40,652 nucleotides of DNA from a virus. Lineage: Duplodnaviria; Heunggongvirae; Uroviricota; Caudoviricetes. The translations under genes and the position numbers were made by a program. The DNA lies in IMG/VR virus record IMGVR_UViG_2579778674_000010; one strand, given 5' to 3'. Of the stretch, positions 23,461-39,100 are shown piece by piece. Every line of letters begins with the position of its first letter. Positions within the stretch are counted from its first letter, which is position 1. The notes under the pieces were generated by a model, which ran no database searches, was not told where the DNA came from, and saw only the letters and a list, made by a program, of their open reading frames with translations.

Positions 23461-23740
23461 TTCTCAATCTCTCGATGGCGCAGCGCAGCAGATGCCAGTT
23501 GTTCAGGCTGACGAATAAAGTATAAATAAACTGGCTATGGTGTAAAGCCCCACATAGCATGAACAAACACTACATATCAAATAGCTGGTACAAGGATAGA
23601 AATACGACATTTATTATTAAAAACGATTAGATAAATTACATTTTAATGTTATGCAAAAGTTCTTTTTTATCATAACATTTCAATAAAAGCATTACAGATG
23701 CAATCATCCCGTCATCATCAATTATTTAAGGTGGTTAAAC

Positions 23741-23827
23741 ATGGAAAATAACAAGTTCGCACATCTCGCTCCTTTTTTATCCGTAATCCTTTTCGCTTGT
23801 TGTTTTATATGGGCATTATTTTTATAA
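23741..23827 (+). CDS. Candidate small hydrophobic peptide (28 aa)
   Basis: ATG at 23741 preceded by AAGGTGG at ideal spacing. MENNKFAHLAPFLSVILFACCFIWALFL, a single predicted transmembrane helix. Lies in an AT-rich intergenic region. Confidence 0.3.
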   Translation: MENNKFAHLAPFLSVILFACCFIWALFL

Positions 23828-24218
23828 AGTAGCCACATGATAAGTTGCTGGAATCATATTTCCCACTCAAGTCATTAACATTTGATAAGATATATCTAAA
23901 AGGACGCCTTTACATTATTTATGTGTATATAATTTATTTATATACACAGTAAAGGTATCCTGGGAAAATATTTATCGTTAAAAAATACATCATAAATAAT
24001 TAAGCTGAAATTTCAGAACACAACTAATATACACAATAAGGTTCAGTAACAATAATCTATGTGGACTACATCGAGATTTTTTGATTAAACTTTAATAACT
24101 TATTCCTAACACACAGAATGCATAAACTAAAAGTAAAACAAATAGTTATACGAAAAACAACCATATTTATTATATCTTCTCCTCTAATCAACATATCAAT
24201 TATGTGTTTCATAACAGC

Positions 24219-24262
24219 TTGACATAACCCTCAAAAACACGCATTTATAATGCATGTTTTTG
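24219..24262 (+). promoter_or_regulatory. Putative promoter with an overlapping inverted repeat upstream of the YeaR-like gene
   Basis: TTGACA at 24219..24224 and TATAAT at 24246..24251 (spacing longer than optimal). Imperfect inverted repeat tcaaaaacacgcat-ttataa-atgcatgtttttga spans the -10 and ends at the ribosome-binding site. Confidence 0.35.
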
Positions 24263-24273
24263 AGGAGGTGGTT

Positions 24274-24612
24274 ATGACACACAAGAGAATTCCTAAAGAT
24301 TGGGTAATCAAACGCTCAACTCCGTTCTTCACAAAAGAGAACGTACCTTCAGCGTTATTAACACATCATAATACAGCAGCAGGTGTTTTTGGGCAGTTGT
24401 GCGTAATGGAAGGTACTGTAACATATTATGGTTTTACTGATGAGAATGCTACTGAACCGGAGATAAAAGTAGTCATTAATGCTGGCGCTTTTGCAACAAG
24501 CCCACCACAATACTGGCACCGTGTTGAACTAAGCGATGATGCTCAGTTTAATATTAACTTTTGGGTCGCTCCAGACTTCTCGGGCGAAAAAGTCTATAGC
24601 ACCAAAAAATAG
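24274..24612 (+). CDS. YeaR-like DUF1971 protein
   Basis: ATG at 24274 preceded by GAGGAGGTGG. MTHKRIPKDWVIKRSTPFFTKE...GQLCVMEGTVTYYGF...AGAFATSPPQYWHRVE...FNINFWVAP aligns in my recollection with E. coli YeaR (RSTPFW..., SVMHGAV.YLGY, AGQFAVFPPEKWH, FNIDFFVAP). Confidence 0.7.
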   Translation: MTHKRIPKDWVIKRSTPFFTKENVPSALLTHHNTAAGVFGQLCVMEGTVTYYGFTDENATEPEIKVVINAGAFATSPPQYWHRVELSDDAQFNINFWVAPDFSGEKVYSTKK

Positions 24613-24641
24613 ATGATCATATTAAAAATGCTTTAACAGTC

Positions 24642-24680
24642 AGACCCGGCAGGGCTATCCCCGACGGGTCTCATTTTTGT
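24642..24680 (+). terminator. Hairpin plus U-run after the YeaR-like gene
   Basis: agacccg...cgggtct (7-bp stem with an inner GGG/CCC stem) followed by catttttgt. Confidence 0.4.
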
Positions 24681-25374
24681 AAATATATTGGTTCTACATT
24701 GACAGGAGACTTCAACCATAAGAAGTAATCTGAATACTTGAGCAATAAATTTACTTAAGATTAATGAGCGCACCTTGCCGGACAAAGATAAACCAAGGTA
24801 ACACCTTTTTTCTAGCCAGTATGTAATCAATCAGAAAGCCGCTCCATAAGAACAACAGCAAGACAATAAATTGCCATTACAGCCGCAATAGCCAGCGCAC
24901 ATTTGAGAACCAGCACGACAACCCCCTGTATTAGACGCACACCAGTCCTGATAAATATGAGGCTGTCTCGTCAGTGATTCAATACAACTATTGGGTATAG
25001 TTTCTGTGATTTTATTCTGTAGAAATGGAACACAACAACCAGTCACCACCAGCACTTCTTTAAATACGCCAAGTCCGACGCAAGCTAACCTTCTAGTCCG
25101 CTTTGAGCGAAAAGCGGACAGGAACATTCTGGTTAATAGATATCAATGCTAACAAAAAAGCTCCCGATGGAGATTTTGAAACCGCTTCCACATAATGAAA
25201 TAAAAGGATTTATTTCTGGTCATGCCCACACATTGACCACGTCGAAGTAAGTAGCTCCGCTTCGCGGAGTTACTTAAGATAATTTCTATGTAGTTCCATG
25301 CTATGATTTAATTTTCAAGTTACAAAATCTAAATCTACAAATGTCCATTTGGGTGTAAAATTACACAATCCTAT

Positions 25375-27700
<2,326 letters not shown>

Positions 27701-28001
27701 TTTAATTACCTTATATATCCAAACTCTTAATTTTCTCTTTTTTACCATAGGATTAATCCAAAATAAAGACCTTGTTGACTAAACCCTCATGTACAAAATG
27801 CACACTTACTCAAAAGGATCTGGAGGCAATCTCGACCTCCATGATTTAGTTCCTAGGGATAAGCAGAAATCTAGCACTGGATTAAAATTTAAAAATAATA
27901 ATCAATAGGTTATAATGGTTTTTATTCGCATCCATGGGATCTGCTGCTGCCCGCATGATGTTGGATGCGACGGCGCTGGCACGACCTCACCCGGTGAAAC
28001 G

Positions 28002-28448
28002 ATGAAACGCGAAAGGGTTGTTCTTCGGGAAGGTGCAGTTGGACTTTCAATCGATGACGTTGCAAAAGAGGCTGGCGTCAGTAAGGCAACGGTAATGTAC
28101 GATCATAAGTCAAAGCAAGATTTGCTCAGCGATCTCATCAGTCGCCTTATGCCAGTAGAGGAGGAACGTGTTCAGCAAGCGATAGCGGAAAGTAATAATA
28201 CCCCACATCCCGCACTCTATGGGCGAATTATTTCAGCCAGTAATGCTCTCAGTCATACTGAGAGAGCAGTAGTGCTGGCGGTCAGCGAATCGTTAACTAA
28301 CGATACGAATATCAGGGACACCATGCGTTCCTGCACAAACAAAGATTTGGATGAGATAAAAAGAGGACCAAAACCAGACGTTGCCGTCCTGGTATATTTG
28401 GCGTTATCTGGTATCTACTGCCAAGAATTTTTTGATTTTTACAAATGA
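28002..28448 (+). CDS. TetR/AcrR-like HTH protein, possibly truncated
   Basis: LSIDDVAKEAGVSKATVMYDHKSKQDLL resembles the TetR N-terminal HTH signature. Only about 148 aa from ATG 28002, shorter than typical TetR proteins. Divergent from the adjacent three-gene operon. The Cys-rich track extension from 27915 was not adopted. Confidence 0.4.
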   Translation: MKRERVVLREGAVGLSIDDVAKEAGVSKATVMYDHKSKQDLLSDLISRLMPVEEERVQQAIAESNNTPHPALYGRIISASNALSHTERAVVLAVSESLTNDTNIRDTMRSCTNKDLDEIKRGPKPDVAVLVYLALSGIYCQEFFDFYK

Positions 28449-28676
28449 TCTCCTGGCGAGCGAGATAAAATTATCGAAGGCATTCGCTGTTTGTATGAAT
28501 CATACCCTTACAAGTCTGAATAAATAATGTCTCCGGGAATGACATTTCATGTGCGACTAATTCGCGATATTCCTATACGTAAAGGTCCGCTTTTGGCACA
28601 AAGTGGACAACCACGCTAGCTCTACCCTGTGCCACAAAATGTCAATTTGCATCTGAACTAATGCACTTTAATCTCG

Positions 28677-38712: not shown

Positions 38713-38919
38713 ATGACAAAAACTTTGAGATATGACGATGTTAAACCATGTCCGTTTTGTGGTTGTCCATCAGTAACGGTGAAAGACATTTCAGGATATT
38801 ACCGGGCAAAATGCAACGGATGCGAATCCCGAACTGGCTATGGTGGAAGTGAAAAAGAAGCGCTCGAAAGATGGAATAAACGAACCACTGAAAATATTAA
38901 TGGAGGCGTTCATGTATAA
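38713..38919 (+). CDS. ralR: RalR (Lar) restriction-alleviation protein
   Basis: Start taken at MTKTLRYDDVKPCPFCGCPSVTVKDISGYYRAKCNGCESRTGYGGSEKEALERWNKR... (Cys4 zinc-ribbon-like); position downstream of recT as in Rac. Confidence 0.75.
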   Translation: MTKTLRYDDVKPCPFCGCPSVTVKDISGYYRAKCNGCESRTGYGGSEKEALERWNKRTTENINGGVHV

Positions 38920-39100
38920 AATTACCGCTACAATTGAAAAGGAAGGTGGCACTCCTACTAACTGGACAAGATATTCAAAATCTAAACTAACGAAATCAGA
39001 ATGCGAAAAAATGCTCTCAGGTAAAAAAGAAGCAGGCGTTTCCAGAGAGCAGAAAGTAAAACTGATAAATTTTAATTGCGAGAAACTTCAGTCCTCGTGA
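38912..39100 (+). CDS. ydaC: YdaC (DUF1187) small protein
   Basis: Start taken at MYKITATIEKEGGTPTNWTRYSKSKLTKSECEKMLSGKKEAGVSREQKVKLINFN... with GGAGG upstream; overlaps the ralR 3-prime end. Confidence 0.7.
   Translation: MYKITATIEKEGGTPTNWTRYSKSKLTKSECEKMLSGKKEAGVSREQKVKLINFNCEKLQSS

Follow-up and report, generated by a model that had tools for sequence, protein, structure and literature searches.

Does a TetR-like open reading frame (ORF) that stands back to back with an operon in a prophage encode the regulator of that operon, or is it the remains of a gene of different origin? A preliminary description of this DNA had put forward both answers. We examined the question computationally in a stretch of 40,652 nt from a virus of the class Caudoviricetes (IMG/VR record IMGVR_UViG_2579778674_000010), here called the window.

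Results

Setting of the TetR-like ORF

The window represents an E. coli prophage of the Rac type. E. coli 181.1 contains a stretch that is 100% identical to the window, and its annotation lists, to the right of the TetR-like ORF, racR, ydaS, ydaT, ydaU, ydaV and genes for DUF1627 and DUF977 proteins. The Rac RalA sRNA was found by an Rfam scan at 38918-39096. To the left, on the minus strand, Pfam identified genes for an adenosine deaminase, a Ham1-like and a SIR2-like protein, named komA, komB and komC below. The TetR-like ORF lies on the plus strand and points away from them.

26720-27700, minus strand: komA, adenosine deaminase, 326 aa from the RefSeq start (PF00962, E 2e-46)
26169-26723, minus strand: komB, HAM1-like, with His65 replacing the catalytic Asp (PF01725, E 2e-39)
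25375-26169, minus strand: komC, SIR2-like NADase effector (PF13289, E 1.5e-26)
28002-28448, plus strand: TetR-like ORF in RefSeq, 148 aa (WP_000818068.1, 'TetR/AcrR family transcriptional regulator')

The distance of about 250 bp given in the preliminary description is correct for the long deaminase ORF, whose start at 27748 is 254 bp from 28002; the RefSeq start of komA at 27700 is 301 bp away. The latter start fits the published KomA numbering (His15/His17), and the longer ORF is probably an over-extension. The higher GC content reported for the TetR-like ORF was also found, at 0.45 against 0.35 for komABC. The TetR-derived stretch has a GC content of 0.44, the spacer 0.31 and the prophage backbone 0.49, and GC3 of the ORF is 0.40 versus 0.22-0.31 for comparison.

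The neighbouring operon is the Kongming system

KomA of the window has His15 and His17, and KomB contains Asn9, Lys12, Glu15 and His65, as published. For komC, PADLOC returned ThsA-type SIR2 matches, and His146 is present. Domain content, gene order and key residues are the same as in KomA, KomB and KomC; by these features, the minus-strand operon is the published and already known Kongming system (Zeng et al., bioRxiv 10.1101/2024.12.20.629578; Nat Commun 2026, PMC13454610). According to these publications, the three-gene operon of E. coli NCTC13216 protects MG1655 when expressed from its native promoter. The system is inactive until it is switched on post-translationally by dITP, which is made by KomA and phage nucleotide kinases during infection, and dITP then triggers NAD+ depletion (bioRxiv 10.1101/2024.12.20.629578; PMC13454610). 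The two papers mention neither a TetR protein nor any other regulator, and the TetR fragment is no part of Kongming as described there (bioRxiv 10.1101/2024.12.20.629578; PMC13454610). By likeness to the NCTC13216 system, komABC of the window is taken to be the anti-phage cargo of the cassette described below.

The TetR-like ORF has lost both ends

The longest plus-strand frame of the TetR-like ORF spans 27915-28448 (177 aa), and RefSeq carries no pseudogene flag for WP_000818068.1. The TetR-type helix-turn-helix (HTH) proposed earlier was recovered by TetR_N (PF00440) with 30.1 bits (Pfam; cut-off 24, E 4e-7). Judged by this profile match, the HTH signature is genuine and not a chance resemblance. 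The match is limited to profile positions 11-45 of 47. TetR_C_28 (PF17937) reached 21.7 bits, below its cut-off of 26.4, at positions 15-76 of 96. Since both matches cover partial profiles, both ends of the ORF look clipped. PADLOC found nothing meaningful in it (a mad1 HTH match, E 0.003).

Relatives were sought with the ORF extended through its stop codon. The matches comprised close copies at 88-100% identity and three distant intact relatives, P0009, P0010 and P0011, which are metagenomic proteins of 183-185 aa and 51-54% identical to the reconstructed fragment over 166-168 aa. Alignment to all three begins at their residue 17 or 18. Among 5.8 billion clustered proteins and 1.8 billion representatives, no intact close orthologue that could be the source of the fragment was found above 54% identity. 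A scan of the 1.8 billion representatives seeded with P0010 retrieved 1,912 relatives, whose full-length members have 178-200 aa; with 148 aa, the ORF is indeed shorter than usual TetR proteins, as had been noted. The intact relatives sit in unrelated gene neighbourhoods. The comparison defined two features:

28011-28526, plus strand: TetR-derived sequence (body of the pseudogene), corresponding to P0010 residues 17-185
28446-28448, plus strand: in-frame TGA at a conserved Trp, removing the last helix, alpha-9

When 25 intact members were aligned to the window ORF, the intact family was seen to begin with M-G/A-R-x-R...ILDAAE-VV-R-GA. The window product can be aligned only from ERVVLREGAVGL, which is P0010 residue 17, and the near-invariant R3, R5 and D14 of the family are missing from it. 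Promoter, ribosome-binding site (RBS), start codon and the first 16 codons, including half of helix 1, have been lost 5' of 28011.

At the other end, the TGA occupies the position of P0010 residue 162, immediately ahead of the helix formed by residues 164-180 in the AlphaFold model. This position is W in P0001, P0005, P0008, P0009, P0010, P0011 and most of the 25 intact members; the codon is TGG in Enterobacter (locus L007) and TGC in Providencia (L004). Beyond the TGA the frame reads SPGERDKIIEGIRCLYESYPYKSE and stays open for 25 more codons, up to the old stop of the ancestral frame at 28524-28526. This tail is read through in P0001, P0003, P0005 and P0008.

The AlphaFold model of P0010 (pLDDT 92.2, pTM 0.82) has nine helices, with alpha-1 at residues 9-23 and alpha-9 at 164-180. 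Foldseek aligned it to solved TetR proteins with TM-scores of 0.7-0.77, and the nearest solved folds are ordinary TetR/AcrR family regulators (TFRs), namely 3e7q, CgmR (2yve/2zoz) and RcdA (7acm). Of P0010, the window product retains residues 17-161; the N-terminal arm and alpha-9 are gone entirely, and alpha-1 by half. The product shares with TFRs of the TetR_C_28 subgroup HTH helices alpha-2 and alpha-3 and most of the all-helical C-terminal domain, but it has neither a complete three-helix DNA-binding domain with N-terminal arm nor a complete ligand-binding and dimerisation domain (alpha-4 to alpha-9). In TetR-family structures, alpha-1 belongs to the core of the DNA-binding domain; the dimer interface is formed by the last two helices, and palindromic operators need dimers. 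The homology search that the preliminary description had called for thus identified a truncated gene with full-length relatives. A fragment lacking the ligand-binding domain, which had been named there as evidence against a regulator, describes the ORF only in part: it is a fragment, but most of that domain is present, and half of helix 1 and the last helix are gone.

The annotated start lies in the remains of a P2-type ogr gene

Two further features occupy the gap between komA and the TetR-derived sequence:

27918-28010, minus strand: 3' remnant of a P2-type ogr (late-gene activator) without its zinc-finger half, recognised by protein-level and DNA homology
27821-27841, minus strand: terminator-like hairpin from a consensus scan, lying past the end of the ogr remnant and ahead of komA

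The minus-strand translation of 27918-28010 is TLSRFIVSPGEVVPAPSHPTSCGQQQIPWM. The native ogr stop is mutated, and the frame extends to a stop at 27902-27904. In a tblastn search of phage records, 24 of 30 residues (80%) were identical to Enterobacter phage ENT4 (E 1e-8), and identity to phages with a protein annotated as Ogr, Pag or 'late control protein ogr' was 60-63% (E 1e-3). The C-terminus of P2 Ogr is 47% identical. The homology is visible only at the protein level and by short-word pairwise comparison: blastn of 27800-28030 against phage records with word size 11 gave no match, and pairwise blastn aligned 27920-28010 to ENT4 DNA at 74.7% identity (E 2e-13). PHROGs failed to recognise the 42-aa C-terminal fragment because the profile match covers only the zinc-finger part.

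The remnant contains the conserved C-terminal segment of Ogr (R-F/Y-IV-x-PGEV...QQI-x-WM). The N-terminal CxxC...CxxC zinc finger (PF04606) is absent from the window. The Providencia copy has kept it, as recognised by phrog_603 (E 1.5e-15) and, in the called gene, by Pfam Ogr_Delta. As in the Ogr/Pag activators of P2-like phages (PF04606, Ogr_Delta), the C-terminal 30 residues are encoded and a hairpin follows downstream as in P2, but only the 3' third of the gene, without the zinc finger, is left. The hairpin folds at -5.8 kcal/mol (z -2.1) from 27841 to 27821 and is placed as the P2 ogr terminator is, which suggests a terminator function.

A locus of Providencia rettgeri carries the same block at 96-97% identity, with a break relative to the window exactly at 28000-28023. 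Here, Providencia has about 200 extra bases. On the minus strand they comprise the Ogr zinc-finger half (MFHCPKCHHASHARTSRY...) and the D-ogr spacer, and they are 79% identical to P2 ogr DNA. The Providencia copy has therefore kept the 5' half of ogr at the same junction, but with an internal deletion. In both, the TetR sequence is joined head-on to ogr remains, at about 28010/28011 in the window.

The ATG at 28002-28004 and the first three codons (MKR) fall within the antisense of the ogr-homologous stretch 27920-28010, so the annotated start is fortuitous. The extension of the long ORF back to 27915 is likewise antisense ogr sequence. Neither a start and promoter of its own nor a frame conserved in close relatives was found for the ORF. 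An alternative was that the TetR 5' end survives as the N-terminus of P0001 (MGSAAARMMLDAT...), separated by a 30-38-nt insertion. This reading had rested on the resemblance of LDAT to the family's ILDAA, and it was rejected since the stretch is ogr antisense; P0001 is a variant lacking 8 nt, so that the ogr antisense frame enters the TetR frame.

Sister copies carry stops, frameshifts and apparently neutral substitutions

In the E. coli copies, the frame is open over 148 codons and HTH helices alpha-2 and alpha-3 are undamaged. An SD-like GGTGA is located at 27993-27997, 4 nt before the ATG at 28002, and a sigma-70-like match, TTTAAA-17-TATAAT (10 of 12), at 27888-27916 on the plus strand. 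Because of these two elements, the truncated protein could be made, although the four sigma-70-like matches of the region are no excess over shuffled sequence (2.7 +/- 1.6). The same TGA-bearing allele is present in about 80 complete E. coli genomes. These observations would suit a truncated protein that is nonetheless made and has some leftover or newly gained activity that does not concern komABC, for example as a weak monomeric DNA binder or as a poison subunit of a TetR-family regulator of the host.

The sister copies argue against such a protein. In a three-way DNA alignment of window, Enterobacter and Providencia, the DNA-binding domain of Enterobacter bugandensis (L007) contains AAG-to-TAG, CCA-to-TAA and GAG-to-TAG changes, and a TAA directly follows the ATG that serves as 'start' in E. 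coli. In Providencia (L004) the start stretch is replaced, without any ATG, GTG or TTG start, and the junction is shifted by 1 nt. Loss of the frame is tolerated in E. coli as well: strain A134_1EC has an IS3 inserted in the fragment at 28242-28245, and frameshifts occur in the protein variants P0006, P0007 and P0013.

The substitutions look as expected under neutrality. The TetR fragments of window and Providencia differ by 19 non-synonymous and 4 synonymous changes (dN/dS 1.40), versus dN/dS values of 0.22 for komA, 0.09 for komB and 0.09 for komC; across comparisons, the operon genes range from 0.06 to 0.32. Under a kom-like constraint the result for the fragment has P = 5e-7, and this comparison gave no sign of purifying selection on the TetR protein. 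Between window and Enterobacter, the fragment has a value of 0.34 when codons containing stops are set aside, but this comes from just 6 and 5 changes, too few to carry weight. Conservation of the fragment is not above that of kom synonymous sites. The identical allele of the E. coli genomes can be explained by the recent spread of one cassette, as the kom genes are 98-99% identical across genera and the cassette 96-99% between genera. Moreover, the closest intact relatives are just 51-54% identical to the fragment, so no close heterodimer partner in the host is evident. Taken together, we regard an expressed and active truncated protein as highly improbable.

Other komABC loci have no adjacent TetR gene

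Starting from 1,695 relatives of the deaminase, a genome scan yielded 79 loci. All three genes, komA, komB and komC, are present in 64 of them, in the same order in about 60, and these loci span Proteobacteria, Bacteroidota and Planctomycetota. A TetR-family ORF adjoining the operon was found in none of the 64 by tblastn and by a family HMM run on all ORFs. Two unrelated hits of the TetR search lie more than 4 kb away. In Citrobacter (L010), the operon is 98% identical, and homology to the window ends at 27982, inside the ogr remnant, at a break that adjoins a P4-type integrase. Without anything to the right of 27982, this copy has intact kom frames at 97-98% identity and dN/dS values of 0.07-0.25.

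The preliminary description had offered, as its first reading, a dedicated local repressor that shares a divergent promoter region with the operon. The 148-aa protein would bind an operator in the spacer and repress komABC until a ligand or a cue from infection appears. The divergent orientation with a spacer of about 300 bp, the genuine TetR_N HTH, and the joint travel of fragment and operon in E. coli, Enterobacter and Providencia are in line with this idea. However, the intergenic 250-300 bp are not a simple shared divergent promoter, since about 90 bp are ogr remnant, followed by the terminator-like hairpin. The search for a palindromic operator that had been suggested gave nothing credible: 27701-28010 contains no inverted repeat with arms of at least 8 nt, fewer than in shuffled sequence. 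The search returned only AT-rich low-complexity repeats (27890-27924, 77% complementary) and 7-nt arms with one mismatch, none above chance; no palindromic operator near a conserved divergent target was thus found for the TetR ORF. The protein would also have to work without half of alpha-1 and without alpha-9, which belongs to the dimer interface. In the sister copies, stops disrupt the DNA-binding domain while the kom genes remain under purifying selection. Furthermore, the 64 other komABC loci, including the Citrobacter copy, have no such gene next to them, the intact relatives of the fragment sit beside unrelated genes, and Kongming is reported to work as three genes. Therefore, the fragment is most likely not Kongming's regulator, and a dedicated repressor appears extremely improbable.

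The fragment is part of a cassette bounded by palindromes

The block shared between genera extends from 25096 to 28603-28608 (about 3.5 kb), and a 24-nt palindrome marks either border:

25096-25119, plus strand: left cassette border, 24-nt palindrome GTCCGCTTTGAGCGAAAAGCGGAC; homology to Providencia, Enterobacter and Citrobacter begins at 25096-25097
28585-28608, plus strand: right cassette border, palindrome GTCCGCTTTTGGCACAAAGTGGAC; homology to loci L004, L007 and L089 ends at 28603-28608

In prophages that lack the cassette, similarity to the window sets in at about 28582-28593 and extends onward. With the right border at 28585-28608, the TetR fragment lies inside the cassette, and enclosed by both palindromes it hitch-hikes with it.

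A function of the DNA itself was weighed as well: 27902-28608 might act in cis as a spacer or insulator, as the right palindromic border for movement, or through antisense transcription into the komA leader. The right palindrome lies just past the fragment, lambdoid elements retain the fragment whichever way it faces relative to the backbone, and the promoter-like site at 27888-27916 on the plus strand points away from komA. Yet a transcript from this site would run away from komA, the border palindrome can be separated from the TetR sequence, and the fragment is no more conserved than synonymous sites of the kom genes. The Citrobacter copy, with its kom frames preserved in the absence of the DNA right of 27982, likewise speaks against a role in cis, which we consider highly improbable.

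The pair of palindromes is the only part of the region that might yield something new. Both sites have the layout GTCCGCTTT-N6-AAAGCGGAC (9-6-9), and the motif has two matches in the window where 0.03 are expected. The left palindrome can form a hairpin of -9.6 kcal/mol (z -4.1), and an Rfam scan of the cassette gave no match. A 9-6-9 layout is that of a tyrosine-recombinase core site or of a hairpin for an HUH-type enzyme.

Among Rac-like prophages, the cassette is found inserted either way round with respect to the backbone; further copies are at another E. coli site and, outside lambdoid prophages, in an integrase-linked island of Providencia. About 35 viral contigs have other cargos between these same palindromic sites, directly after the DUF977 gene. 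At least five other cargos are bracketed by the pair in this slot of Rac-like prophages; cargos found there include HAD and NUDIX hydrolases, two proteins with HEPN-like motifs, and a GNAT protein with an XRE-cupin regulator. In Salinicola, related palindromic sites lie on either side of a Kongming block, and unrelated viral contigs contain short arrays of them. The border palindrome as a general feature of Kongming was ruled out, as only two of the 79 loci (L010 and L049) have it.

Cargo modules, or morons, of lambdoid prophages are a general concept, as are the defence hotspots of phages and satellites. In line with it, the cassette places a low-GC defence operon in a slot of a Rac-like prophage whose content varies, other prophages having different cargos there. 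What sets this case apart is the specific pair of 24-nt palindromes at the ends of the slot and the occurrence of the cassette outside lambdoid prophages as well. The TetR and ogr debris may mark komABC as the cargo of a discrete exchangeable cassette that moves by dedicated site-specific exchange at the palindromes rather than by homologous recombination at a conserved terminator, a reading that we regard as possible but rather unlikely. If true, it would reveal an undescribed cassette system for prophage defence genes, and the TetR fragment would still be functionless.

Discussion

Very probably, the TetR-like ORF is a non-functional TetR-family pseudogene, carried as a passenger in a 3.5-kb cassette (25096-28608) whose functional cargo is komABC. 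The alternative offered in the preliminary description, a truncated and decayed gene of different origin, has held up: both ends are lost, the 5' end is fused to ogr, a nonsense codon replaces a conserved Trp, and the composition is unlike that of the operon. Functional TFRs have their own promoter and start, an operator, a conserved target gene and a constrained sequence, all of which are missing for the fragment. A small residual doubt comes from the open 148-codon frame with its SD-like sequence and promoter-like match, by which a truncated protein could be made.

The comparisons show the following course of events. An ancestral rearrangement cut a TetR gene at about codon 17 and joined it head-on to a P2-type ogr; the junction probably arose through a deletion where a degraded P2-like prophage ended. 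This step cost the gene its promoter, RBS, start codon, N-terminal arm and the first half of alpha-1. Later, in the E. coli lineage, most of ogr was deleted, leaving a chance ATG in the ogr antisense that gene callers now use, and a TGG-to-TGA change then removed alpha-9. Since then, the fragment appears to be drifting neutrally, without regulating komABC. Its persistence would be due solely to its place between komA and the right cassette border and to the young age of the cassette (96-99% identity).

What adjoins this known defence system is an ordinary pseudogene, with consequences for annotation. In about 80 complete E. coli genomes and in other genera, the ORF is mis-annotated as an intact regulator and should be treated as a pseudogene. 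The TetR fragment is no evidence for transcriptional regulation of Kongming and is unfit for guilt-by-association searches for defence regulators. What it does offer is a record of history. The 3' end of ogr, together with the 5'-cut TetR debris, records a former site of the cassette beside the end of a P2-like prophage, and the debris serves as a lineage marker for the cassette among Escherichia, Enterobacter, Providencia and Citrobacter.

Identity and extent of the operon

The minus-strand genes at 25375-27700, which the preliminary description had listed as a candidate operon, are the published Kongming anti-phage system, with komA (adenosine deaminase), komB and komC (SIR2-like), and all of the key residues published for the system were found in them. 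The komA-komB-komC trio was present in 64 of the 79 related genome loci, which span several phyla. The longest deaminase ORF (26720-27748, minus strand, 342 aa, start at 27748) appears to over-extend the gene. A start at 27700 (326 aa) agrees with the published His15/His17 numbering and with most RefSeq records; the 342-aa form is annotated in some of these records, e.g., that of strain SW4848.

Palindromes at the cassette borders

The cassette carrying komABC and the broken TetR-family gene has the 24-nt palindrome GTCCGCTTT-N6-AAAGCGGAC at both ends (25096-25119 and 28585-28608), and these are the only two copies in the whole window, compared to 0.03 expected. Besides the window, the observations on this palindrome concern loci L092-L158, L049 and L091. 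In approximately 35 IMG/VR contigs, the same pair (loops TGGCAC and GAGCGA) encloses other cargos of 1.2-4.0 kb, which directly follow the DUF977 gene. Elsewhere, the inner half of the palindrome is constant and the outer half variable at each site. Related palindromes with different loops border the Kongming block in Salinicola avicenniae, and in unrelated viral contigs they are repeated in short arrays with all copies in one orientation. No family match was found for a 98-aa ORF overlapping the left palindrome (24831-25127, minus strand), which is probably spurious.

Present and possible past sites of the cassette

Two features lie between komA and the TetR fragment:

27902-28010, minus strand: surviving 3' part of a P2-type ogr gene, which codes for a late activator
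27841-27821, minus strand: terminator-like hairpin accompanying the ogr remnant

The Providencia rettgeri copy (L004, 7750-8040) retains the ogr zinc-finger half and the D-ogr spacer. These observations suggest that a P2-like prophage formerly had the cassette at its end.

In E. coli SW4848, the same cassette ends at the equivalent of window position 28608, and the next gene is that of a 'GTPase family protein' in place of DUF977, which makes this a second E. coli insertion context. The entire cassette is decaying in E. coli A134_1EC, where an IS3 lies within the TetR fragment (window-equivalent 28242-28245) and komC is truncated by IS2.

Probable other cargo and further features of the prophage

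To the left of the cassette, 23501-25095 is a second low-GC stretch (GC 0.35), probably a further piece of cargo. Two other features of the window were:

24274-24612, plus strand: DUF1971-type gene (112 aa) inside this stretch, from the annotation of the identical E. coli 181.1 locus
38918-39096, minus strand: RalA sRNA (Rfam RF02694, 218 bits), the antitoxin in the RalR/RalA toxin-antitoxin pair carried by the Rac prophage

As alternative cargo, the same prophage slot holds one large protein each in L095 (3782-5569) and L124 (5187-6119). Both proteins have C-terminal Rx4H motifs (RNQLAHG and RSKAVHG) that look HEPN-like, and their genes are candidate defence genes.
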